In this document: piece by piece, positions 1 to 42,936 of the stretch | Layout: the number at the start of each line of letters is the position of its first letter | Numbering within the stretch: the first letter of the stretch is position 1 | Assembly (NCBI GenBank): GCA_963741205.1 | Contig: CAVUHW010000026.1 | Coordinates: forward strand, 224,001-288,000 | From: Nitrospirota bacterium | Lineage (GTDB): Bacteria; Nitrospirota; UBA9217 | Length of the DNA: 64,000 bases | Reading direction: 5' to 3' | Position numbers and translations under genes: made by a program | The notes under the pieces: model-generated | What the model saw: only the letters and a program-made list of their open reading frames with translations | Database searches by the model: none | What the model was told of the DNA's origin: nothing

Positions 1-1070
1 TCTGGTCCACGCCGCATTCGGCCGCCATGATCCCCGCGAAGTAGGCCACCTCGCGCGCATGCATGAGCACGTTCTGTCCGTAGCTCGTCCGGTACTTGAG
101 CCTGCCGATGAGCTTGATGATCTCGGGATGCAGATTGTGGATGCCGAGGTCGAAGGCCGCCTTCTCGCCCTCTTCCTTCATGGAGACATCGAGGTCTTTC
201 TTCACCTTTTCGGCGATCTCCTCGATCCGGGCGGGATGGATGCGTCCGTCGTGCATCAGCCGTTCGATCGTGAGCCTCGCGATCTCCCGCCGGAGCGGGT
301 CATAGCACGACAGGATGACCGCCTCGGGCGTATCGTCGATGATCAGGTCGATGCCCGTGGCCGCTTCGATGGCCCGGATGTTCCTGCCCTCGCGCCCGAT
401 GATCCTGCCCTTCATCTCATCGTTGGGGAGATTGACGACCGATACCGTGGCCTCGGCCACATAGTCGCTCGCGTAACGCTGGATGGCCAGGCTGATGATG
501 TTCTTGGACTTCTTGTCGGCCTCGTCCTTCGCCTCGTCCTCGATCCGCTTGATGGTCTTGGCCGCCTCGAACTTCGCCTCGTCCTCCATGGCGACCATGA
601 GCTGGCGCTTGGCCTCTTCCGCCGTCATGTTCGCGATCTTCTCGAGCAGTCTCGCGCTGCTCGCGCAGGCCCCTGTCAAAGCGTTCTTCCTTTTCGACCG
701 CGACCTTTTCGCGCGCGGAGAGCTCGCGTTCGCGGCGGATCGCATCGGACTCCCGCTTTTCAACCAGGTCGATCTTCTTTTCGAGGTTTTCTTCTTTCTG
801 GGTGAGCCGCCGTTCCTGGTTCTGGATCTCCTGCCGTTTCTCGCGGTTTTCCTTCTCGAACTCCGCGCGGGCCTGGTAGAGCTTGTCCTTGGCCTCGAGG
901 ACGGCCTCTTTGCGTTTGGTCTCGGCCTCGCGCTCGGCGTTCGCAATGATCCTCGCCGCCTCGCCTTCGGCGTCCCGGATCTTGCCCGCTGCGGCCTTTC
1001 CTTTGACCAGCAGGCCCAGGCCGAATCCTCCGGCCAGTCCCGCCACCACTAGTACAATATACTCGATCAT
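1..1070 (-). CDS. rny: Ribonuclease Y (3' end beyond window edge; frameshift near 650)
   Basis: N-terminal TM helix and coiled coil (ORF 417..1070). The downstream frame reads ...[14 protein letters not shown]... (KH domain) and [16 protein letters not shown] (start of HD domain). Confidence 0.93.
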
Positions 1071-2382
1071 TTTTGTTCCTCCTGATGTCTCTTCTTGAGC
1101 CCGGCAAGACGCTCCTTGATTCTCTTTTCTTCGCCCTGCTCCGTGGGCCGGTAATAATCCCGCTGCTGCGGGAGGTAATCCTGGGCCGCATAATGGCCCG
1201 GATAATCGTGCGGATACTTGTAGCCTTTTCCCCTGCCGAGCCTCGCGGCCCCCTGGTAATGGGAGTCCTTGAGATGGTCCGGTACGGGAAGCAGCGTCCC
1301 TTCCTCGATGTCCTTCATCGCCGCCTTGATGCCGAGGTAGGATGCGTTGCTCTTGGGGGCCGCGGCGACATACACGGCGGCCTGCGCCAGGGGGATCGCC
1401 CCTTCGGGCATGCCGATGCGCTCCAAGGCCTGATAGGCCGCGGTCGCGACGAGGAGCGCCCGGGGGTCGGCGTTCCCCACGTCCTCGCTCGCGGCGATCA
1501 CGATCCTGCGCGCGATGAACAGCGGGTCTTCCCCGGCAGTGATCATCTTCGCCATCCAGTAGAGCGCGGCATCGGGATCGCTCCCGCGCATGCTCTTGAT
1601 GAAAGCCGATATGGTATCGTAGTGTTCGTCCTCATCGTAGACCAGGGCCTTTTTCTGGATGGATTCCTCCGCCGTGCGGAGGTCGTAGAGGATCGACGCC
1701 GTCTGCGCCGGGCGGCGTTGAAAGCACGCCGATCTCGAGCGCGTTCAGCGCCCGCCTCGCGTCTCCGTCGGACTTCGCGATGATGAAATCGAGCGCCTCC
1801 GGCGTCAGGTTCACGGCCAGGTTCCCCAGCCCCCGTTCCTTGTCCGCAAGCGCGCGGAGAACCAGGCTTCTCATATGTTCGGCCTCCGAGCGGTTTGAAT
1901 TCAAAAATCTGCGAGCGGGACGACAGCGCGGGAATGATCGAGAAGAAGGGATTTGACGTCGAGGCGCCGATGAGGATGATGTTCCCCCGCTCCACGTCGG
2001 GCAGGAGCGCGTCCTGCTGCACCCGGGTAAAGCGGTGGATCTCGTCGATGAAGAGGATGGTCTTCTTCCCGCCCTCGTTGCGCTCCGCGGCCGCCTCCTG
2101 CGTCACCCGCCGGATGTCGGCGACGCCTGCGGTCACGGCATTGAGCGACACGAAATGGGCGCGGCTTTTCTCCGCGATAAGGTGAGCAAGCGCGGTCTTC
2201 CCCACCCCCGGCGGTCCGTAGAGGATGAGCGACATGAGGCGGTCGGTCTCAATGGCCCTGCGCAGGAGTTTTCCCGGCCCAAGGATATGCTCCTGGCCGA
2301 CGAACTCGGAAAGGTCGCGGGGCCGCATGCGCCACGCAAGAGGCGGGTTTGCAGGCTCTGCAGGCAGGGACTCCGTCTGCAT
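1067..2382 (-). CDS. rarA: Replication-associated recombination protein A (AAA+), split by indels
   Basis: PLAWRMRP, GPPGVGKT and FIDEIHRF in ORF 1543..2598; SDGDARRALNALE in 1632..1904; RGSDPDAALYW...ASEDVGNADP...PKSNA in 1067..1591. Confidence 0.93.
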
Positions 2383-2926
2383 GTTTCTTTTAAGGTTTTT
2401 TAGACCCAACGTAATTACTTCAGGAGGGAGGGCACGGCAGTGTGATAGCGGGCGAAAAAAAGTTCTGAATTCAACCAGCTCAGGAGAGAACAGTACCCGG
2501 GGAAGCGACTGGCGTCGGGGAACCTGCTGATTTTCCAGGAAATTGAGTAGTACGGGTGGATAATCTGCTGCCTCTGCCCGTTGTCTGCAAAATGCCACAT
2601 CCTGGTTGTTCCCCTTCGGTGCTTATATGTTGTATTCGTAAGTTTCCCCATGGTCTTATTATGTTGCCAAGCTGGTAAAACAATTTTCGCGCGGTCCGAA
2701 GGAGCGAAGCTTCGTGAGAAGCTCGGTTGTTTTAACTTCCCCTCGGTACCGCTGTTTCTTGAGACTATCACAAGCGCCGGAGCCTTCCCTACTTCCCGCT
2801 CCTTATGGACTTGCTAGCGCTGATTACTCATTTAAGGAGATATATCTGTCATCATGGATAACGAGGATACTTGAAGGATGATACTATGTATCGTACAGAT
2901 GACCCTCTCTGTCTATTATATAAAAA

Positions 2927-3103
2927 TCCCCCGCTTTTGCCGTGTAGATAGACTTGATTCCTGGACTTTGCCAGGTGGGCGCCATGATGGAAAGTTCAGG
3001 CTTCCCAGTCCTGTCTGGGCATGCACACCCTTTCCAGAAGATAGCTCCCTTTAATTTTTTTTCACGAGGAACAAGTTATATCCATCACGCGCAAAGCAGG
3101 GGA
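2927..3103 (-). ncRNA. ssrS: 6S RNA
   Basis: The ends pair (5' TCCCCTGCTTTGCGCGTG with 3' CACGGCAAAAGCGGGGGA) over about 177 nt. Internal GGGAGCT, GTGTGCATGCCC, GGGAAGCCTGAA and CCCACCTGG motifs are typical of 6S RNA. It lies in the canonical position downstream of zapA. Confidence 0.8.
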
Positions 3104-3263
3104 CGATTATTTTTTTCTGTATGTATATATACCAGAATCAGGGAAAAATGGCAAGGATAAAAAAATGTGGACAGGAGAGCAGGTAAAACACATGACTTTC
3201 AGCAAGTTACAAGTGCGATATGCCTCGAACATACCCCGGTGATTTCCTGGAGTAGAACATCGT

Positions 3264-3548
3264 TCATTCCGTTCCCGCACTTTTTCCGTCATGTCGAGCA
3301 TGCGTTTTACGGCATTTCTCAGCGGTCGTTTCCAGCTCGCCGTATCGCTCCCGCAGGCCATAGAGTTCATCGGCTATCGTAAGCGCCGTCAGGATGGCGA
3401 CGCGATGGGGATCGACCGTGCCCGTCCCCTTCTCTACTTCCTTCATTTTTTTATCAACATAGGAGGCAAGTTCGCGTATATGGGCGGGATCGTCCGCTCC
3501 CTTGAGGCTGTAGACCTGACCGTATATTTCGACCTGGACGGGTTCCAT
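3264..3548 (-). CDS. zapA: Cell division protein ZapA (C-terminus probably frameshifted)
   Basis: VEIYGQVYSLKG...LASYVDKKM...VAILTALTIADEL signature. Confidence 0.9.
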   Translation of the reverse strand: MEPVQVEIYGQVYSLKGADDPAHIRELASYVDKKMKEVEKGTGTVDPHRVAILTALTIADELYGLRERYGELETTAEKCRKTHARHDGKSAGTE

Positions 3549-31245: not shown

Positions 31246-33829
31246 TTAGCGGGAATCATAAACTCCCGCCAAAAAGTCCCTTGCATAGCGGTCAACGGCG
31301 TTGTCATCATGAAGCGCAGCGTCGAGCTGCCGGGCATAGGCGATCAGCCTTCCCGTCTGGTCGAGGACCTGCTCCATGTCCTCTTGACGAAGTCCGGCAA
31401 GACGCGCGATGAGGAGGTCGCCTTTTATCTTGATGTTGAACCCGTACTCCTTCAAAATTTTCGCGATGAGTTCCAGCCGCCTCGAACGCTTCAGCAGGTC
31501 GGTCGCCCCGCCCGCGAAGCGGAAATAGATGTGGTTGTTTCTTGCGTTTTCGCTCATGAAGCAGTCGATCATGTTGAAATGATATCCGAACCTGATGCTC
31601 ATGTTCACATACTCGCGGGAGATGACGGCAACGTTGTATCCCGCCGTGCTGCCCGTAGCGGACGCTATGTCCGGCATCCTCATCATGCTCGACAGAAAAT
31701 CCTGCGCGGTGAGCGCCACGGCTTCCGAATGCCACGCCCCGGGATGGATCATGCCCTTGACGATCGCCCTGAACGGCAGGGAGTCAATCTGTTCGAAAGT
31801 CGCCTTCCCCTCCTGATCCCCTTCCCGCAGGCCTCCGCCCAGGTCCATGACCACGATGCCGGTGGGGATCGTGAGGTCCAGTTGAACGACCGCGCTCTGC
31901 CTCTTCATCCTGACGCTTCCCTCGCGGGCGCTGTCCACCAGCTCGGCAACGGCCTTCTCATGGATGAACCGCAGGATGTCGTGCAGGGTCCTGCACCGCT
32001 CGGGCGTGAACTCGTCCATGAGCGGATCGATGAGATGGAGCGGTGAGATGTACCGAAGGATGTACCGCTTGCGGCGGAACTCGTAAACGCTCTCCATCTG
32101 TTGTTGATCCTCGCCGGCCTTTGTAAGCAGCTCGCGGATGATCCCTGAGTAGATCATCGAGGTATTGCCCTCTCCCGCGACGAGCGTTATGTCCTGTCCC
32201 TGTTTCAGGATTTCCGTCGCCCCGGGCATATTCACGAGAGTCGGCACTTTCAATTCCCGGCAAAGCGCCGCCATGTGGCTGGTTTGAGAGCCCGTCTCGG
32301 TTACAATCGCGGCGACATAGGGCATGGCCCTGACAAAGAGCGAGGAATCATGAGGAGCGACCAGGATGGCCCCTTTCGGGATGGTAGCGATATCCTCGGG
32401 ATTCCTGACAATAAAGACCATGCCGGCGCCGATGCCGCGCTGGACCACCATGCCGCGGTCTTGCGCAAGAATGGGGTGGTCTGTCGTAGAAGCGGCACTC
32501 ACGCCCTTTGCCGGATCGGAGGCTTGATCCGCGGCCTGAACGTTCAAGGGACGGGCCTGGAGGATAAAGATCGCGCCTTTTTTATCGACGGCCCATTCAA
32601 TGTCCCGGGGACTGCCGAAGTACCGTTCGATGGTCATGGCCTGTCTTGCCAGCGTTACTATTTGTTCAGGAGTGAGACAGGGCCGCGCTTGCAGCTCGTC
32701 GGGGGTCTGGACCTCGACCGTCCCGCCCTTTGCGCTGCTCACGATCATGGATTTTTTAATGCCGTAGGTTGCCCGCACGAGTTCAGGGTCCGTTCCCTTT
32801 TCGAACAACGTACAGGTCTGTCTCCGTCTTGCCTTCGACGATCGCTTCTCCCAGCCCCCAGGCAGCGCTGATGATCAGCCTGTCACGGTCGCCTTCCGGT
32901 GTCGTCGAATAGATGACTCCGCTCGTCTCGGCCCCGACCATGACCATGCAGCCGACCGCCATTTTGAGCGCACTGATGTCATAGCCCAGCTGTTGCTCGT
33001 AGGCGACAGCCTTGCCCGAGTAGAGGCTGGCAACCACCTTTCGGTACGCCCGCTCCACTTCCTGGAGATCCAGGGAAACATTCAGGACGGTCTTGAACTG
33101 GCCGGCAAAGGAATGGCCGCCGTCCTCCTCCCCGGCGCTGCTCCGGAGCGCGAGGAAGGAGCCGTTGTTGCGCCTGCGTATCTTGTCCAGGGCCTTCTGG
33201 ATCCTGCGGCTGACCTCCGGAGGGATTTCTCCATGAAGGATGAGCTCCTGAAGTTCCTGGAGGGCCGAGTCCGACAACGAGGAGTCCTTCGTCAGCTGTT
33301 CGATATGGCCGTCAAGGCGATTATGTTTGACGAAGGCATCAAACCCCGCGGTCGTGATGACGAAGCCGTCGGGGACCGAAAGGTGCAACTGGTTTTTTAC
33401 CTCGGCGAGGTTGGCGTTCTTGCCGCCCACGATCTGCGACACACCCCAGGGGATCTCTTCGAAAAACAGAACGGGCGCCCCTGCCGCCGGCAACGCCTCG
33501 TCCACCATGCTGCTGATCAGGGTGTCGATGTGTTCGAAGGCTTCGCGCAGCCGTTCGTACCTGCCCTGCGTGAGCGCATCGAAAGCACGGAGCGAATTCT
33601 CCATGTCGTTCCTGAGGGAGGCATAGGCCTTTTTAACGTAAACAATATCGAAGAGATAGTCGCCGCCCAGCTTTTCGCCCATGTCCGTTATGGTTTCCAG
33701 TGCGCGGTTGTTGCTTTCGAGTACACCCTTGAAGCGGTCGAATATTGCCCTGAACGCAGCGGGATCGGAAGGGAACTTCCTGCGGGAGAAGGTCCGGGAC
33801 AGGGAGGATACTATGGATTTTATGTCCAT
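31246..33829 (-). CDS. PEP-synthase/PPDK-like protein (ATP-grasp + phospho-His swivel domain + atypical C-terminal domain), frameshift near 32800
   Basis: VGGKNANL, VPDGFVITT, RSSA..ED...SFAGQF, GLGEAIVEG, DIEWA..LQARP and TGSQTSHMAALCRE (His domain). Confidence 0.85.
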
Positions 33830-34041
33830 GGGGTGTTTCCTGGTCTTTCTCTTGTGTCATACCTGCGAAAGCAGGTATCCAGCCTGCACCCGGCGTCTAC
33901 TAGTGCGAGAGCACGAGTGCAGAATGGGCTTCACCATGCAAGGAATGGAGCCTGCCCCAGCATGATTCTAGCCGGGGCGGGAATGACAAAAAAGGGTGCG
34001 CTCGGGGATGACGACCAAAAGAGTACGGCATCGCGCCTGCA

Positions 34042-34411
34042 TCACGCCGTGCCGAGCGCCCGTCTGATCGACTCCTTCAGTTCCTTGATCTTGACCGGCT
34101 TGGGGAAAAAGTCGTGCACGTCCCCCCGGAGCGCCTCGATCGCGGCGTCGAGATTGGCGAAGGCCGTGATCATGATCACCGTCGTGGCAGGGTAGCTCTT
34201 TTTACGGTCCGGAGCACCTCCATGCCGTCGATGCCCTTCATCTTGTAATCGGTCACGACAACGTGGAATTTTTTTTCCTTCAGCCGCGTCAGCGCCGGCT
34301 CGGCATTCAGAAAGGTCTCGACCTCGTAGCCTTCCTGTTCGAGCGACAATTTCGCCATGTCGCCCACGATCTTCTCATCGTCAATGACCATGATGCTGTA
34401 TCATTATCCAT
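34042..34411 (-). CDS. Single-domain response regulator, frameshifted
   Basis: VIDDE and VTDYKMKGIDG; the next frame gives IMITAFA...FFPKPVKI. Confidence 0.85.
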
Positions 34412-34430
34412 TATTGCTTGTCTCCTCTTT

Positions 34431-35836
34431 TTACGCATGACTCATGAACATGGGCAGCTCGATGGTAAAGGTCGTGCCGACCCCCACTTTGCTCTCCACC
34501 CTGATCTCGCCTTTATGGTTTTTTATGATGCCGTAGCTGACCGAAAGCCCCAGGCCCGTCCCGCCCTCGCCCTTGGTGCTGAAAAAGGGATCGAAGATGT
34601 GCGGCAGGAACTCGGGGGGTATGCCCTTGCCCGTGTCCATCACCGTGATCTCGACGGAATCCCCGCCCTTCCCTGGCCGTCGACGCGATAAACAGCCTTC
34701 CTCCCGCGGTCATGGCCTGGACGGCGTTCGTGATGAGATTGACGAGCACCTGCTGGATCTGGTGCTCGTCGATGAACAGATGCGGCAAGCCCGCTGTCCA
34801 GATTCACCATGGTCTCGATATTCGACACATCGATCATGTTCTGGACCAGCGTGAGCGTCTTCTGGATCACGCTGTTGATGTCCGCTTCTTTCGGGTTGCG
34901 CGTCCTTGGGCTTCGAAAAGTCCAGAAGGTTCTTGACGATCTTGCGGATTCGCTCGGTTTCCGCGTCCACCTTGTTCATGAACTCCGATCCGGTCCTTTT
35001 CGCTCAGCTTCGGCGTACAGCTCCGCATAGGTCTGGGCGATCATGGAGATATTGTTCAGGGGATTGGTGATCTCATGCGCGACGCCGGCAGTGAGGATGC
35101 CGAGGGAGGCGAGCTTCTTGGACTGGATGATCTCTTCTTCCCGGTGCGCCAGCTCCTCGGACATGGAATTGATCGCCGTGATGACCGAGCCAAGCTCGTC
35201 CCTGGACTGGAAGCCTTCGATCCGGTTGAAGTTGCCCTCGGAGATGGACTTGGTCAGCTTTTCGATCTGCCCTGAGCGAGCGCACGATCTTCTGCGAGAT
35301 GAAATGGCTGATCAAAAGCGCCGAAACCAGGATGGCCCAGAAGGAAAAGATCAGGATGTGCTTCGAGCTCAGGATGATGTCGTTCACGCGTTTTCGCTCG
35401 AGACGCGTGATGGAATCGGAATATTCCTTCAGTTTCCTCCCCGCCGCCCGGATACTCGCCTCCAGCTCGGGGTCCTGGAGGCTCTTGCGGTCCGCTTCCT
35501 CGATGACCTTCGATAGAACTTCAGATGGGATTCGAGCTGCCTGAGGTCGGTCTCTCCGATCGCCCGGATGATGTCGTCTTTCGCGGCCTTGATGGTCTCC
35601 TGCGTGGCAAGGATCTTTTCCTGGATCTCGGCGAGCGCTTTTTTGTCATGGTACAGGAAATAATTCTTCTCCGACAGCCTCATTTCGAGGAAGGACGCGT
35701 TCAGATCATCGGCGATCTCCACGAACCGGAGCTTCGTCAGTACCAGGCTCATGTTCTGAAAGGCGAAAAAGCCGATCAGGATGATGAAGGCGCCGTTGAT
35801 GATGTTCGATATGATGAGTTTGTTTTCTATTTTCAT
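34431..35836 (-). CDS. HAMP-domain sensor histidine kinase, multiple indels
   Basis: [13 protein letters not shown] periplasmic motif; [10 protein letters not shown]; [10 protein letters not shown]; [14 protein letters not shown]. Confidence 0.85.
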
Positions 35837-36020: not shown

Positions 36021-37262
36021 TTAGCACTCACATCGGCACCGGGACTCCGGGATCTCCGCCTGTTCCTTCCTGACCGGCAAATACCACAGGAGGCCGTCCA
36101 CGGCCATGAAGACGCCGGCCGCAATCAGAAGGACATCGAAGGCGGTAAGCAGGCTGAACCCGAAATAGTGCATAAGCCCGAGCCCGACGCTCGTAAAGGA
36201 CACGCCGGTCCGGATAAACGCCAGACCCGTCCGCGCGCGGGCGTAGATCGTGCGGTAGCAGGCGGCCACGGTGCGCTGCGCCGCGAGCACGTTCCGTCGC
36301 CGCGCCAGGTGCGTGCGTTCCCTGCTGGCCGGCTGAGGGATAGAGAATGGTGCTGTAGCCGCCGATGCAGTCGCCAAGCCGGGCGAGCATGGTCCCCTTC
36401 GTCGGCCGCTCGATGCTGCAGTGGTCAAGGTCGTGGTAATTCTCAAGGAACTGCATGGTCGCCGACGTCACCTCAATGAGCGTCTGGTGGCCCGGCGTGC
36501 TCATCCTTGTTCTCCGCACGTTGAGATACCCGGTCAGCCCGAAGACGCCAAGGACCGCGCCCGCCGCGATCATCAACCAGTAGAAGACGGGGAGGATGGC
36601 GCCTGTCTGGCGGGTCCTCATGAGCACGATCGGACAGGGCGATGAGGCCCAGCCCCCAGCGGAGGATGGCGAGGTCCGTCCTGCCCTTGGCCAGATCGTT
36701 CCGGTAGCAGGCGAGCCTCGTCCTCCAGTGGGCCATGGTATTGCGCCAGAAGGCGAGGCCCGTCCGCTCCGTCCCGATCAGAAGGCCGGGTTTCGCATGC
36801 AGGTAATCCTGGATGAACCACTGGATATCTTCTTCGAGCGCCACCCAGAATTCATACCTCTCGGCCTTGATGGAGCGTCTTGACCTCCTCGAACATACCG
36901 CGGGTCCTGCGGGTTTGCCGCGGCTATAACAACCGTGTCGCCGTCATGGATGATCGGGAACCACTGGCTGAAGGAAAGCCGCTCGCTGTCGAGGCCCTCC
37001 AGGAAGTTCGGGAGGGATGGGCATCCGCTCGTCATATTCCACAAAGGGGCAGTTATAGTATTCCGACAGCGCAGCCAGGAGGTCCTTTTTCGCAACACCG
37101 TACTCCCGCATCAGGACCTGCTCGAGCTCGATGCCGCGGGCAACGGCAGTGCGTTCCGCGGCTCGCAGCCCGGCCTCCGTCAAAACGCCCCAGTCGAGCA
37201 GAATAAGGAACCGTTCGGCCTGCTGCCTCGGATTCTATATCATATGCGATCTTAGACGTCAT
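36021..37262 (-). CDS. T2SSE_N/MshEN-like domain fused to two DUF202 (YidH/Vtc1-like) membrane repeats (subunit B), multiple indels
   Basis: Joined frames give LLAALSEYYNCPFVEYDE...WFPI...VIAAANPQDP (T2SSE_N-like); then ERTGLAFWRNTMAHWRTRLACYRNDLAKGRTDLAILRWG+2TM; then ERTHLARRRNVLAAQRTVAACYRTIYARARTGLAFIRTG+2TM. Confidence 0.7.
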
Positions 37263-38901
37263 CGTGACTGAACACCGCCTTTTTCCATGATCGGGCGGGC
37301 TTGCCGTAATCCGGGACCGCGATCTCCATTTCGCCGTAACAATAGGGAAACTGTTCCCGCGTGCGTTCGGCCGGAATATGCCAGAAGAGCCCGTCGGCGA
37401 TAAAGAGCAGTGCCCGCAATGATCATCGCTGCGTCGAAGACGGTCCAGAGGACATTTCCGGTCCCGAAATACACCAGGAGCCCCAGACCCACGGCTGAGA
37501 TGCTCATCCCCGTTCTGAGGAGCGCCATCCCCGTCCTGGAACGGGCCATGACCGTCCTCAGCCGGGCCATGACGTTTCGCCGTCTCCGCAAGGAGCGTGC
37601 GCTCCAGGGCAAGGCCCGTCGTGGCCCATATCCCGGGCGAGGCAAACCCCTTGACAGGGGGAGCTGTCCGCAAGGGGCTCGGAGCCGTCATGCCTGAACC
37701 GGGGAGGGAACACAACATCCCAGATGCCGGACTTATGCTCCGTTCTCTTGACGGCCTCACTGCTCTCCCGGCCCGCGCGGCGTCCGGGAAGATACCAGTA
37801 AAAACCCTCCGCCACCATCAGTGATCCCTGCAAGGATAAGCGCCGCGTCCGCAATGCTCCAGGGCCCGGCAGGGAACTGCCTGAGGAGGGCGACACCGAG
37901 CCCGATAAAGGCGAACCCCGTGCGCGTAAACGAAAGCCCCGTGCGCGACCGCGCCATGAGCGTCCGGTAGCACGCGAGCGCCGTGCGTTCTTCGGCAAAG
38001 TCCGTGCGGTCGCTTGCCAGGAACCTCCGCCGCATGACCGGAGAAAGGCTGTTCCACCCGCTCCGGAGCTCGTCCGCGCCCGGCGACCTCGGCGCTCCTC
38101 AGGAAAGACCGGATCGTCGCCGGGGTTTGACACTTCGAGCACCGTCGTCCCGCCCGTAGGCTCCGTTGATCCGCAGACGACCAGCTTCTTCCCGACCCTG
38201 CGGGCGGGCAGGTACCACTTGAAGCCGTCTACGGCCATGACGAGCCCGTGACGCGAACAGGAGCCCTTCGACGACAGTCAGATATCCAAGGCCGAAGACC
38301 CTGAACAGGACGAGCGAGATCGTGATGAAGGAGACGCCGGTGCGGAGGAAGGCAAGCCCCGTCCTGCCCTTCGCAAGCGAGGTCCGATAGGAGGCAAGCA
38401 TCGAACGCCGGTCCGCGAGAAAGGTGCGGACCTTGGCAAGCGGCGTCCTGCCGCCGGCGGGGGGAAGCCGGGATTGAGGTCCTGATTGTGTTCTATGATC
38501 CTGACGAGGTCCGACGGAAGGGCGACTTTGAAGTCGATCTGACTTACACCGAGGGTCTTCCGTACATCATCCAGCACGGCCGGATCGTCGGGACGGCAGG
38601 CGATGACCTCGGCGCTGTCCCCTGTGATCGACAGGGGAAGCCAGAGCGCGCGTTTGAGCCGCTCCATGTCCATCCGCCGTGTGATCTGCTGAGAAACGAT
38701 GACACTTTCGTCATACTCCACGAAGGGGACGCCGTAGTATTCCCCGAGACAGAAGAGGACCTCATGCCTCGGCACTCCCCTCCGGAGAAGCAATTCCTCG
38801 ACAGGAAGGGACGATTCGCCTGCATCACGGACTACGCTCTCCAGGTCCTGCGCGGAGATCTCGCCGCGGCTGACGAGCCTATAATATTTACTTTGCTCCA
38901 T
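37252..38901 (-). CDS. T2SSE_N/MshEN-like domain fused to three DUF202 membrane repeats (subunit A), multiple indels
   Basis: LFCLGEYYGVPFVEYDE...WLPL...VIACRPDD; then three R/T-periodic helices (RTSLAKGRTGLAFLRTG; ERTALACYRTLMARSRTGLSFTRTG; ERTLLA..RNVMARLRTVMARSRTGMALLRTG), each followed by 2 TM ending DG/EG.xW(Y/H)xP. Confidence 0.7.
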
Positions 38902-38967: not shown

Positions 38968-39157
38968 TCAGGACTTCTTTTCTTCCTTATTATCCAGCGA
39001 AGGGGCATCCTGGCCGTCTTTCATGGCCTTTCTTGAACTCCCGGATGCTCTTGCCGAGCCCCTCTCCGAGCTCCGGGAGTTTTCCTGGTCCGAAGATGAT
39101 CAGGACGATCAGAAGTATCAGGATCAGGTGCATCGGCTGCATTAAACCTTCGAACAT
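38968..39157 (-). CDS. tatA: Twin-arginine translocase TatA/E subunit (not in ORF track; +1 indel near 39030)
   Basis: Translates as [43 protein letters not shown]; AAGGAG RBS. Confidence 0.88.
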
Positions 39158-39727: not shown

Positions 39728-40592
39728 CTACTTCGCGATCAATATCGGGCACGTGGCATAGGCGATGACCCGCTCCGCCGTGCTCCCCATGATCGCCTTG
39801 TCCACGCCGCTCCATCCGTGGGTCCCCACGACGATCAGATCATGCTTCATCGTGTCGGCGATCTCCACGATCTTGTCGCCGGCGTGGCCTTCCTGCACGA
39901 CCGCCTTGATCTCCACCCCAAGCGCCGAGGCGAGCTTTTTCGCCCCTTCTACGATCTTCTCCGCCTCCTGGAAAAGGCTTTTCTTGACGGACTCGGTCTT
40001 GAAGAAGTCCATCATTTCCTCGTAGCGGGGGATCACATAGAGGACTGACACCTCTGCGCCGTCCACCTTCGACAGTTCGCAGGCCCGCGTCAGCGCCTTC
40101 TTGCTCGATTCGGAGCCGTCAAAGGGGACCAGCAGGGAATGGTAGCTCCCGGTGCATTTGGAGCACGGCTTCTTCACCACCAGCACGTCGCAGGGCGAAT
40201 TCAGGATGACCTGCGAGGTCACGCTGCCCATGAGCAGCCGTTTGAGGCCCTTCCTCCCGTAGGTCCCGAGGGCGATCAGGTCCGCGTTGTTGCCTGAGCG
40301 CCGTTTCCACGATCACCTGGGGCGGCTCGCCTTCGCACACGAGGGATTCGACATTTCCGTTCAGGCCGAACTCGGATTTGATGTCGTTCTTCGCCAGCCG
40401 GCATACCTGCGTGCCGATCTCGAACCGCCTTTCCATCTGCGACGGCAGGATGGCGAACTCCTCCTGGTCGAAGTACACCGCATGGACCAGATGGAGTTTC
40501 CCGCCGTGATTTTTCACCCAGAGCGAGGCTTCCTTCAAGGCCGCCTTGCTCGATACCGACTCATCATATCCGACGACAATGGAGTTGTACAT
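39728..40592 (-). CDS. Tandem two-domain universal stress protein, frameshift near 40300
   Basis: IVVGYDES...; MGSVTSQVI..PCDVLVV; LLVPFDGS...GTHG...MGSTAERV. Confidence 0.88.
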
Positions 40593-41401
40593 TAATGAGA
40601 ACCTCCGCCTTTCCTGAACACCAGGCTCACGCCGAAACCCGCTCCCAGCGCGATGCCGATGGAGAGGATACCGTAGAACGCCGGCGTTGTTCTTCGCCAT
40701 GGTAGCGAGCGTCTTGACCATGCCGACCTGCTCGACGTTCACCTTGGACTCGGCCTGCTCCACGACCTTGCCGTTCTTTACCGCATAGACCGTGACCAGA
40801 TAGTCGCCGGGCGCGGCCTGATAGGGCCAGTCGGTCAGAATGTAATATTCCTGCCGCCCGTCGGCGTTCGTCTTTGTCTCGATCTTTCCGAACGATGTGG
40901 CGTAGACGTGCGAATCTTCCTTGAACTTCACGAACTCATCGAACCATTTGGCCTTTTCTTCCTCGTTCGCGACCGGGGTTATCTCAACATGTTTCTCCAG
41001 GGCGGGGTATCCGATCGTATATTTTTCCAGTTCTTCCCTGCTCAGGATATCTTCCAGGCTTTTTCGTGCTGAAGACCGCGTAGAAGTTCGGGACATGCTC
41101 GAACTTCAGGGTCCCCACGTTCATCCAGAGCATGCCGCCCGACCTTGCCCTTCTGCTTCAGCGTCTGGTGCCCTTCGGGGGCGGTTATCTTGATGACCAG
41201 GTCCACGCCCGGATCCGACTCGCCGCGGACGCTCACGGTGCTGCCGTGATAGAAGAAGTCGATGGTGATGTGGTCATGGTTCGCCCTTGCCGTCAGCATG
41301 GCCGACGCCGTTCCCGCAAACCCGAAGGATAAGAACCAGTGCCAATACGGCGATTGCCGTAATTCCCCGATTTCGTGATTCCGCATTCCGAACTTCTTCA
41401 T
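40592..41401 (-). CDS. TIGR02186-family protein (TSUP partner), indels
   Basis: ITIDFFYHGSTVSV.G, KGKV..LWMN and WPYQAAPGDY.V motifs; C-terminal TM ending GGGSH; directly follows TSUP. Confidence 0.75.
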
Positions 41402-42330
41402 TTAATGTCCTCCCGCCTGCGATATGAGTAATGACGGTGTCAAGGTAAGTTCGAAAACGATCTTCACGGTCACGGCGAGCACGATCCCCGCGAGAAGGAT
41501 CTTGAGCTGGTCGGCCTTGAGCTTCCGGCCGAACACCGCTCCGATCTGGGCGCCGACGGTGGAACCCGAGGAGCAGCAGCACCGCCAGCACGAAATCCAC
41601 GCTGTGGTTCGTATAGGCCTGCAGGAACGTCACCTCGATGCAGGTGAAGAGGATCTGGAACAGGCTCGTTCCGACGACCACATGCATCGGCATCCGGAGC
41701 ATATAGACCATGATCGGCACCATCAGGAACCCGCCGCCCACGCCCATGATCGCGGCAAGCACGCCCACGAACGCTCCCGAGAACGATCGGCACGAGGACG
41801 GAATGGGTGATGCCGGACTTCTCGAAACGGGTCTGGAGCGGGAGCGACTTCAGGAACCTGCCCACGGCCGATTCTTTCTCTTCCTTTACCTCAACGGCCT
41901 GCGCGCCCTTTTTCTTCTTCATGCTCTGGAGGCTTTCGATGAACATGTAGCCGCCGACGATGCCGAGCATGAGCATATAGGTCATCTTGATCACGAAATC
42001 GGCGTTGCCCATGGCATGGAGCAGCTTGATCGCCTGAACGCCGACGATGCCGCCCAGGAAACCGCCTACCAGAAGGTAAAGCCCCATCTTGAAATCGACG
42101 TTGCCGACCTTCCAGTGCGCATAGGTGCCGGACGTAGACGCGGCCACGATCTGGTTCGAGTCGGTCGCCGCCGCCACGGTCGAAGGAATGCCGAACATGA
42201 TGAGAAGCGGCGTCATGAGAAAGCCTCCGCCCACGCCGAACAGGCCGGAAAGCAGCCCCACGGCAAGCCCGAGCCCCACAGGGACCAGGATATTGATACT
42301 TGTCAATGCCACCGGTAAATACAAATGCAT
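41402..42330 (-). CDS. TSUP (TauE/SafE) family permease, indels
   Basis: MHLYLPVA, SGLFGVGGGFLMTP, MGVGGGFLMVP and VVGTSLFQI motifs. Confidence 0.9.
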
Positions 42331-42441
42331 TGTCTCAACTCCTTTTCTTCGAATTTAAAATACGGTGCTCTTTTCAGCCGCCGTTCTCCGCACAAACGGT
42401 TAGTTTTTTTTGTAATACCCTTAATGATAAAGTTCAGTAGG

Positions 42442-42936
42442 CTACGCCATCGCGGCCTGTCTCGTCATGGTCACGATCGGACGCGACGCCGTCCGGACAA
42501 GACGGTTCAGGTCCTTGGCTGAAACATTGCCATTGCCGGTCACGGCGGGGCTCAGCACGACCTTGTCGATTCCCGCATGGTTCTTGAGAAACGTCCGGAT
42601 GCCCGATACCGCATCGAGGTCCGTTTCCTGAACGCCCACCTGGATGCCTTCCCGTCGGCATTTATCCATGAGCACGGAGAGCAGCTTTTCATACTGCCGG
42701 CCGGAATCGGCGGAATCGCCCGACATAATCTCGCGCGCCGTCACGTGCTCATCTGCCTCGGCAAAGCTCACGGCCGTCATCAGGTCCCCGAGCCTGTCCA
42801 TGAGCTTGCTCTTCTTCTGAACCATAAGAAGCGTGATGTCCTCGTACATCGCCTTGGCCAGTTCGATTGCATACGATACGCCCTCTTCCAGATTCTCATC
42901 CCGGTAGGTGACGAACAGCAACTGCCTCTTTCCCAT
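42442..42936 (-). CDS. Hypothetical protein, degenerate USP-like fold; first gene of the operon
   Basis: AAGGAGG RBS; LLFVTY...GVSYAIELAK...PIVTM resembles USP topology. Confidence 0.6.
   Translation of the reverse strand: MGKRQLLFVTYRDENLEEGVSYAIELAKAMYEDITLLMVQKKSKLMDRLGDLMTAVSFAEADEHVTAREIMSGDSADSGRQYEKLLSVLMDKCRREGIQVGVQETDLDAVSGIRTFLKNHAGIDKVVLSPAVTGNGNVSAKDLNRLVRTASRPIVTMTRQAAMA

Follow-up and report, generated by a model that had tools for sequence, protein, structure and literature searches.

What is assembled from two overlapping genes that hold between them five membrane hairpins of the DUF202 family? The question is raised by a 64,000-nucleotide (nt) stretch of a Nitrospirota genome (GenBank assembly GCA_963741205.1, contig CAVUHW010000026.1, positions 224,001 to 288,000 of the forward strand), which is hereafter called the window. 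Gene A extends on the minus strand of the window from an ATG at 38901 to a stop codon at 37252, and gene B, on the same strand, from an ATG at 37262 to a stop codon at 36021; the start of B overlaps the end of A by 11 nt. A reading of this DNA from its letters alone (hereafter, the sequence-only reading) took the pair for a candidate polyanion channel with three units contributed by A and two by B, comparable to the yeast VTC channel. The results presented here indicate that the five units occupy fixed and distinct positions and carry a ladder of conserved arginines, properties from which a channel for an anionic substrate can be proposed and weighed against other possibilities.

Two genes with three and two DUF202 units

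Profiles made from intact relatives and placed on the three minus-strand frames of the window cover gene A (37252-38901, an MshEN-like domain followed by three DUF202-type hairpin units) from profile position 2 to 546, with at least seven frame switches, and gene B (36021-37262, an MshEN-like domain followed by two units) from profile position 5 to 400, with at least four. Once the frames are restored, there are no separate small genes, and the two overlapping genes that the sequence-only reading discerned behind indel-split frames emerge, each at the place it had proposed. The product of gene A starts with an MshEN/GSPII-type domain (38464-38886, minus strand as all features described here; E-value 8e-58 with our own profile), which is followed by units A1 (38191-38452, frame switch near 38249), A2 (37771-38035, frame switch near 37821) and A3 (37336-37609, frame switch near 37411), each consisting of an arginine-ladder helix and two transmembrane (TM) helices, TM1 and TM2; A3 has five ladder arginines. 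The product of gene B contains an MshEN-like N-terminal domain (36785-37210, E-value 2.8e-35), unit B1 (36502-36772, frame switch near 36629) and unit B2 (36060-36323, E-value 2.9e-41). All these assignments come from the profiles, and units A1, A2 and B2 are also detected with Pfam. Unit B1 is the most divergent one, with RWG in place of RTG and a polar TM1.

The Pfam gathering scores are 23.4 bits for DUF202 (PF02656) and 23.1 bits for MshEN (PF05157). The raw, unjoined fragments of the window include an MshEN match of 48.4 bits (E-value 9e-13, within 38278-38901), two DUF202 matches above the cut-off (24.9 bits in 38099-38401 and 29.4 bits in 37757-38035) and two below it (18.3 and 20.8 bits). 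In the intact relatives, Pfam identifies MshEN (33.8-42.1 bits) with three DUF202 stretches in A (59.9 and 63.8 bits) and MshEN with two such stretches in B (31.9 and 28.3 bits). Neither Pfam nor NCBIfam yields a match to the T2SSE ATPase domain in A or B, in agreement with the ATPase-free two-gene architecture of the sequence-only reading; the SPX and TTM polymerase domains are not found in A and B either, where Pfam gives only MshEN and DUF202, and NCBIfam has no family for A. The DUF202 similarity is real, both in the intact relatives and in two fragments of the window; the units of A and B are DUF202 members, yet form a distinct subfamily.

In the intact relatives, the product of A is 546-620 amino acids (aa) long (546-585 aa in eight excised loci) and that of B 401-460 aa (401-429 aa in the same loci), and the start of B overlaps the stop of A by 8-14 nt; in loci L017 and L018, the overlap is the 8-nt sequence ATGAATAATGA. 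A B-type match lies 1.2-1.7 kb downstream of A on the same strand in 16 of 16 relatives with an A-type match. Among the approximately 8000 candidate database proteins that were scored, 861 are A-like and 1305 B-like at E-values of 1e-5 or lower; where they are named at all, they are annotated as "DUF202 domain-containing protein", "YidH (DUF202 family)" or, rarely, "type II secretion protein". In the Atlas, DUF202 is likewise the family of the closest clusters (0.87, 0.84 and 0.83), which serves as a lead only. A literature search, with subscription journals and supplements outside its scope, revealed no paper that joins DUF202 with MshEN; the DUF202 literature, judged by titles and abstracts, contains nothing on the A/B architecture, and the literature on YidH, T2SSE_N, PF02656 and PF05157 added nothing relevant.

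Five fixed and non-equivalent unit positions

With the alignment of B, 80 loci were found, taking one genome per species, in Nitrospirota (Thermodesulfovibrionales) and in the families Desulfobulbaceae, Desulfocapsaceae and Desulfurivibrionaceae. Exactly one MshEN domain with three units followed by one with two units is present in 70 of these loci; of the remaining ten, three are cut by contig ends, two have a split A, and five possess a second A-type gene. In a sample of 251 genomes drawn evenly from the phylum, 34 carry the module, with five units in 32 of them, six in one and ten in another, G232, where two complete A+B modules are located on contigs C76 and C84. No genome in the sample has 2, 3, 4 or 7-9 units, and six more genomes show one weak single-unit match each. 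The 150 listed cluster representatives give the same count: three units in each of the nine A-type proteins that are full-length and two in each of the seven B-type ones, with fragments or single-unit relatives making up the remainder. No A without B and no B without A was detected among the 34 carrier genomes, and no variation in the number of units per gene was seen, the two findings that the sequence-only reading had named as damaging to it if they turned out otherwise. The count of three plus two is accordingly close to invariant in the loci, the carriers and the cluster representatives alike, as had been proposed; the stricter notion of a single A+B set of five units holds for the 70 loci and the 32 carriers but not for the five loci with a second A-type gene.

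The units are also distinguishable by position. In a maximum likelihood tree of 115 units from 23 loci, with six single-unit outgroups, each of the five positions constitutes one side of a branch, with bootstrap and SH-aLRT support of 100/99-100 for A1, A2, A3 and B1 and of 79/91 for B2, and both phyla are represented inside each of the five groups. By the counts and the tree, the five unit positions are fixed, non-equivalent and old. This is what a hetero-pentameric ring would require; it is not proof of one.

The arginine ladder

The five units can be aligned over about 90 residues. Reading from the N-terminus, a unit has 5-6 heptads of the pattern xRTxLAx, a first hydrophobic helix that is joined by a short loop to the second, and a terminal DGxxWYxPxR(K/R) motif. 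Across 35 aligned A sequences and 26 aligned B sequences, the ladder arginines are invariant at an exact spacing of seven residues (positions 154/161/168/175/182/189, 294-295/301/308/315/322/329 and (436)/443/450/457/(464) in A; 164/.../199 and 312/.../347 in B). In a larger count that includes 80 A-type and 82 B-type reading frames from the 80 loci, Arg occupies model positions 3, 10, 17, 24, 31 and 38 in 77-82 of the 80-82 sequences in all units, the sole exception being position 3 of unit A3. As A3 has no first rung, the ladder comprises 29 positions (6+6+5+6+6). The Arg-Thr heptads that stood out in the sequence-only reading are therefore real and far beyond chance. Each ladder arginine is adjacent to Thr or Asn, and units A1 (78 of 80 sequences) and A2 (79 of 80) contain an extra conserved Arg 14 residues deeper, within TM1. 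The unit consensus, ...ARTGLAFIRTG..., shares its register with ANERTFLAWVRT from the canonical DUF202 protein that this genome encodes, and a signature of the ERTxLAWxRT type is present; the Glu that precedes the Arg of this signature is not retained at rung 5, where the preceding residues in the five unit consensus sequences are G, A, S, A and A.

AlphaFold2 models of relatives place the ladder and the first membrane segment on one continuous helix of about 52 residues (50-55), followed in each unit by a return helix of 29-41 residues. The model of A (mean predicted local distance difference test score, pLDDT, 83.3; predicted template modeling score, pTM, 0.75) consists of helices 154-205, 211-239, 290-344, 351-391, 431-480 and 485-518, and that of B (pLDDT 77.5, pTM 0.55) likewise includes two helices per unit. 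Given two membrane helices per unit, all units have the same orientation. The arginine at every seventh residue is on the cytoplasmic half of the long helix.

In the structure searches, after the rows that match the MshEN domain, the helical part of A is matched best by arcs of designed, circular-repeat toroids and by a single-chain barrel of parallel alpha helices (8e0o_B, Z 12.5, root-mean-square deviation (rmsd) 3.5 over 166 residues; 7rdr and 6xr1, both Z 10.8; 8qai, Z 10.1). Parallel inner helices with returning outer ones, as found in these matches, are the arrangement that a ring model predicts for an arc of three fifths. In the search with B, MRS2 (8ts1) appears at Z 8.0, which is within the noise for helical proteins. 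Among the PDB entries, a Foldseek search with the model of A matches the MshEN domain alone; the ABC-exporter rows obtained for its membrane part (E-value above 0.03, TM-score 0.11-0.15) are regarded as noise.

Relationship to the VTC channel

The yeast VTC complex consists of three Vtc1, one Vtc3 and one Vtc4 subunit with three membrane helices each, and its pore is lined by the five TM1 helices. At the cytoplasmic mouth, K24 and R31 of Vtc1 and their equivalents, seven residues apart, make up two rings of positive charge; M42 is a hydrophobic constriction, and E30 pairs with R83 of the adjacent subunit (all according to the available parts of PMC9911596, bioRxiv 10.1101/2023.01.27.525886). 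The pore is basic-lined, as stated in the sequence-only reading. The link that it drew between DUF202 and the VTC membrane domain stands as well: an SPX-VTC-DUF202 architecture is named in PMC12388464, and the four best PDB matches of the canonical DUF202 protein encoded in the genome analyzed here are Vtc1 chains (E-values 0.36-0.54). In this weak match, R......ERT......RT is aligned with K24, E30-R31 and N38 of Vtc1. Because the Pfam DUF202 match in unit A2 begins at the fourth Arg and the canonical protein aligns as described, rungs 4, 5 and 6 would correspond to Vtc1 positions 24, 31 and 38, with three more rungs pointing away from the membrane. The position equivalent to the VTC gate (rung 5 plus 11 residues) is occupied by Ser, Ala and Ser in the units of A and by Gly and Ser in those of B.

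The canonical protein just mentioned is the product of the only canonical DUF202 gene of this genome (locus L013, genome G000, contig C30, 841-1728; 57.4 bits). An upstream segment that spans the membrane several times is read in the same frame, and the end of the gene is garbled, probably another frame-shift artifact. A different kind of relative has a single unit: in P0312, P0315, P0354, P0310 and P0306, about a dozen or more consecutive RTxLAxx heptads precede one hairpin, and in P0310 and P0306 the hairpin is followed by a C-terminal receiver domain.

The MshEN domains and c-di-GMP

The N-terminal domains resemble MshE in complex with cyclic di-GMP (c-di-GMP), 5htl_B, with Z 14.0 and rmsd 3.2 over 138 residues for the model of A and Z 14.3 and rmsd 3.5 over 139 residues for that of B, both from relatives. 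Other matches in the structure searches include PilF GSPII-B, XpsE and the PilB N-terminus bound to PilZ. The last of these, 7lko, is among the Foldseek matches of A and exemplifies an MshEN-type domain that docks a protein. According to the available part of bioRxiv 10.1101/2021.06.11.447907, the N-terminal region of PilB binds PATAN regulators, not receiver-only proteins.

Could A and B be canonical c-di-GMP receptors, whose membrane part would be opened or closed by MshE-like binding? The likeness to c-di-GMP-bound MshE and PilF GSPII-B (Z 14.0-14.3, Foldseek E-value 7e-5) and a match of B to the NCBIfam model NF053729, "c-di-GMP_motif", are compatible with such a role, but this match (19.6 bits) is far under the cut-off of 38 bits and A has none. 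Moreover, when the 24-residue c-di-GMP motif, taken from the available part of PMC5013675, is placed by hand on the turn glycine of the A (35) and B (26) sequences, its Gly at position 3 corresponds to Phe in motif I and to Glu/Lys in motif II, Ser/Ala or Tyr takes the place of Gln at position 24, and Arg at position 1 is mostly missing. Given these replacements and the NF053729 score below the cut-off, canonical c-di-GMP binding by A and B appears unlikely, in line with the doubt voiced in the sequence-only reading, and the receptor model as a whole is very improbable.

State of the assembly

In total, A and B contain at least 11 frame switches within 2.9 kb, a density that might be taken to mean that they are decayed pseudogenes which encode nothing functional in this genome. 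We find this hardly credible, since the neighbors are affected to an equal degree: all six genes tested against the proteins of a relative are frame-split (TauE into 3 pieces, Alph_Pro_TM into 4, the double universal stress protein into 2, the histidine kinase into at least 3, the receiver protein into 2 and the dikinase into 2). Furthermore, the matched segments of A and B retain every profile position, with no internal stop codon noted, and the switches correspond to single extra bases. In contigs about 90% identical to the window, from four public sequencing runs, one base fewer than in the window is present at 12 listed places (36336, 36597, 36629, 36878, 36900, 37230, 37411, 37584, 37821, 38086, 38106 and 38249), each supported by two to four of the four runs, and at 15 further places. 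Most of the 12 places match frame-switch sites (36336, 36629, 36878/36900, 37411, 37584, 37821, 38086/38106 and 38249). Because the neighbors are equally split and the related contigs reveal single extra bases, the breaks in A and B are best explained by assembly noise, not decay; the window assembly carries many single-base insertions. Split genes are found across the window, for example in 39731-42333 and 31264-35836, and, with neighbors split by single extra bases, gene calls from this assembly need frame-aware reading. The source genome is 84% complete and consists of 50 contigs. The own sequence of the window is absent from the runs examined (shares 0.05-0.07). Contigs from RNA libraries of relatives span parts of A and B, which is no proof of transcription.

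Genomic context and conserved partners

Three genes accompany A and B in both phyla. Directly downstream of B is a histidine kinase of the HAMP-HisKA-HATPase_c type (34431-35836, minus strand, as are all genes of this section), followed by a receiver-only response regulator of about 122 aa (34054-34400) and a PpsA-like dikinase of about 860 aa with a PPDK_N ATP-grasp domain and a phospho-His mobile domain (31264-33850). No phosphoenolpyruvate (PEP)/pyruvate-binding domain was detected in the dikinase: only the ATP-grasp and phospho-His domains match the PEP synthase model, with 313 bits against a cut-off of 598, and residues 129-574 match PDB 2ols. The first approximately 128 and the last approximately 280 residues have no match in Pfam, NCBIfam or Atlas, and the small neighboring proteins have no assignment in these three resources either. 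PADLOC, whose models represent anti-phage defense systems, reports no family for A, B, the dikinase and four neighbors.

In Nitrospirota, the typical gene order is a 165-aa protein, TauE, Alph_Pro_TM, a double universal stress protein (USP), sometimes another USP, a TatA-like protein, A, B, sometimes a 194-aa membrane protein, and then the kinase, the receiver and the dikinase. The flanking genes are different in Desulfobulbales, where A, B, kinase, receiver and dikinase nevertheless remain together; in two of the three loci of this order examined, L101 and L084, a second dikinase paralog is located directly upstream of A, such that two paralogs (803-3403 and 7975-10545 in L101) flank the module. 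The TatA/TatE-family gene directly upstream of A in the window (38990-39157, 55 aa) has a counterpart in L018 (7238-7426, 62 aa, TIGR01411 with 72.5 bits). The block farther upstream (39731-42936), which encodes the 165-aa protein of no family, a TauE/SafE permease, Alph_Pro_TM (TIGR02186) and the universal stress proteins, is conserved in the Nitrospirota relatives, not in the Desulfobulbales loci. The TauE protein has a low-scoring match (46.7 bits, cut-off 800) to the C-terminal part of the model for the magnetosome protein MamO.

In the class sample of 41 genomes, 28 of which are at least 90% complete, polyphosphate kinases PPK1 and PPK2 are present in 2 and 3 genomes, respectively. Being rare in carriers and non-carriers alike, they are uninformative for discriminating between the two. 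With no known source of polyphosphate in most carriers, a simple role in polyphosphate handling is disfavored, unless it is the dikinase that supplies the polymer.

A putative anion channel and its alternatives

The chances seem about even to us that A and B assemble in equal amounts into a hetero-oligomer with five Arg-lined inner helices, which would serve as a regulated channel or conduit for an anionic substrate. Under this model, A and B would be co-translated subunits of one inner-membrane complex, each with a cytoplasmic MshEN-type domain followed by hairpin units. The five long helices would run parallel around a central axis in the manner of the VTC TM1 helices, with the five return helices outside, and the 29 ladder arginines would be stacked as positive rings, so that, relative to a VTC-type channel, the pore mouth would reach about 30 residues (45-50 A) farther into the cytoplasm. 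The substrate would be an anion that is either passed or held by the complex; an oligo- or polyanion is the most likely kind, for example a phosphate chain or a sulfur oxyanion. For the MshEN domains, docking of a protein partner can be envisaged, with two candidates: the PpsA-like dikinase and the receiver-only regulator, which the adjacent kinase would phosphorylate. A more elaborate version, a bacterial counterpart of VTC in which the dikinase would make a phospho-anionic chain, dock on MshEN and feed the five-hairpin channel with its 29 arginines under the control of the kinase and the receiver, is quite unlikely in our estimate.

Several observations weigh against a channel, beginning with the relationship to VTC itself. 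The matches of the canonical DUF202 protein to Vtc1 chains are weak, and a search of PDB sequences with the unit profile retrieves no VTC chain, the best match being unrelated (E-value 0.19). In the AlphaFold2 models, there are two membrane helices per unit compared with three in Vtc1, and the E30-R83 lock between VTC subunits is missing; if R83 belongs to the third helix, its segment has no counterpart in the units. The sequence-only reading, which called the units Vtc1-like, is to be corrected on the number of helices and on the lack of a direct profile match to VTC chains; membership in the DUF202 family stands. That no VTC chain is among the matches listed by VIA-align for the A and B models carries no information, as VTC subunits are short single chains. 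The matches of A to toroids and a barrel have Z below 13, a range that, according to the search tool, can be common for helical repeats, and the four helices of the B model look like a bundle of the syntaxin type (Z about 10), a possible sign of intramolecular packing. As regards stoichiometry, a second A-type gene is located directly upstream of A in five of the 80 loci (L055, where it is 71% identical to A, L062, L064, L068 and L070), one carrier genome has six units, and a fused five-unit protein was not found among the longer forms searched (962-2745 aa), which is weak evidence. Finally, a narrow bundle with thirty charges of one sign would require counter-ions, and the neighboring genes point to no substrate.

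Two other arrangements of functional A and B proteins have to be weighed together with the channel. The main rival, which we consider clearly less probable than the channel and still a serious possibility, is that A and B constitute a non-conducting, polyanion-binding stalk or scaffold through which nothing is translocated; its ladders could bind a negatively charged partner (a polyphosphate granule, a nucleic acid, the head groups of acidic lipids or an acidic segment of a protein) or could serve to anchor the dikinase and the two-component system at the membrane and regulate them there. Most of the ladder is indeed outside the membrane, with four of the six rungs preceding the Pfam DUF202 match, and the heptad arrays of the single-unit relatives P0312 and P0315 far exceed the needs of a pore. 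The receiver domain at the end of some such relatives (P0310) is suggestive of signaling, MshEN-type domains are docking hubs, as illustrated, in the available parts of the sources, by the PilB N-terminus with PilZ (7lko) and with PATAN regulators, and the four-helix bundle of the B model fits a stalk as well. A mere tether, however, has no need for a strict count of five or for five fixed unit identities, and the alignment of the last rungs with the pore-lining residues of VTC, the small residues at the gate-equivalent position and the deep TM1 arginines of A1 (78/80) and A2 (79/80) also weigh against it.

The second arrangement is that A and B belong to separate homo-oligomers, A forming, for example, a pseudo-trimer or multimerizing by itself, and B likewise, such that the sum of five would be structurally meaningless. 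The confident, compact single-chain model of A (pTM 0.75), the two A-type genes per B in five of the 80 loci and the failure to find an A-B fusion are all compatible with this arrangement. Yet A and B are always adjacent and overlapping, neither gene occurs alone in the 34 carrier genomes, and the unit positions each have a long history of separate conservation, which makes separate complexes unlikely.

The channel and the stalk would both be of interest. DUF202 is a large family, and its only understood members form a eukaryotic polyphosphate channel. The A/B pair, with five fixed and distinct units, an invariant arginine ladder and partner genes shared by two phyla of sulfur-cycling anaerobes, amounts to a natural experiment on this family. 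If the proposed pore is real, it would be the first bacterial VTC-type channel, a hetero-pentamer hard-wired as 3+2, and there would be a direct route to its substrate via flux assays, ladder mutants and the activity of the dikinase. Should the ladders bind rather than conduct, A and B would represent a new kind of polyanion-binding membrane stalk.

Comparison with known systems

Like the corresponding domains of MshE, PilB, PilF, GspE and NfrB, the N-terminal domains of A and B belong to PF05157 (score above the cut-off), and they have the same fold (Z 14 with 5htl_B). In A and B, however, no ATPase or glycosyltransferase follows, the domain is attached to a membrane domain, and the residues that contact c-di-GMP in MshE-type domains are replaced.

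With DUF202 proteins of the YidH type from E. coli, the units of A and B have in common the ERTxLAWxRT signature and the first membrane helix. YidH-type proteins differ in being single units of about 115 aa, without MshEN and without an extended ladder, and they have three membrane helices. In the available part of PMC10299036, YidH is listed as a candidate for D-alanine export; when it was overexpressed, the intracellular D-Ala level was that of the host strain.

The closest parallel is the VTC membrane domain (PDB 7ytj, 8i6v). The two systems belong to the same Pfam family, have five non-identical units, 3+2 in A/B compared with 3+1+1 in VTC (three Vtc1, one Vtc3 or Vtc2, one Vtc4), and carry basic residues seven apart on the first helix, which in VTC form positive rings at the pore mouth. 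In contrast to the VTC subunits with three membrane helices, the A/B units have two and are tandem-fused on two chains; they have six Arg rungs instead of two rings, no E30-R83 ionic lock and small residues at the M42 gate position. A and B also possess MshEN in place of the SPX and TTM polymerase domains and would reside in the bacterial inner membrane. In VTC the assembly is pentameric; for A/B, a pentamer is proposed from the unit count.

By analogy only, the CorA/Mrs2 magnesium channels resemble the proposed A/B complex in having a long cytoplasmic stalk helix that continues into the pore-lining TM1, a short outer loop, an outer TM2 and five-fold symmetry. There is no sequence relationship between these proteins and A/B, and CorA is a cation homopentamer with an acidic or neutral pore, whereas the lining of an A/B pore would be strongly basic.

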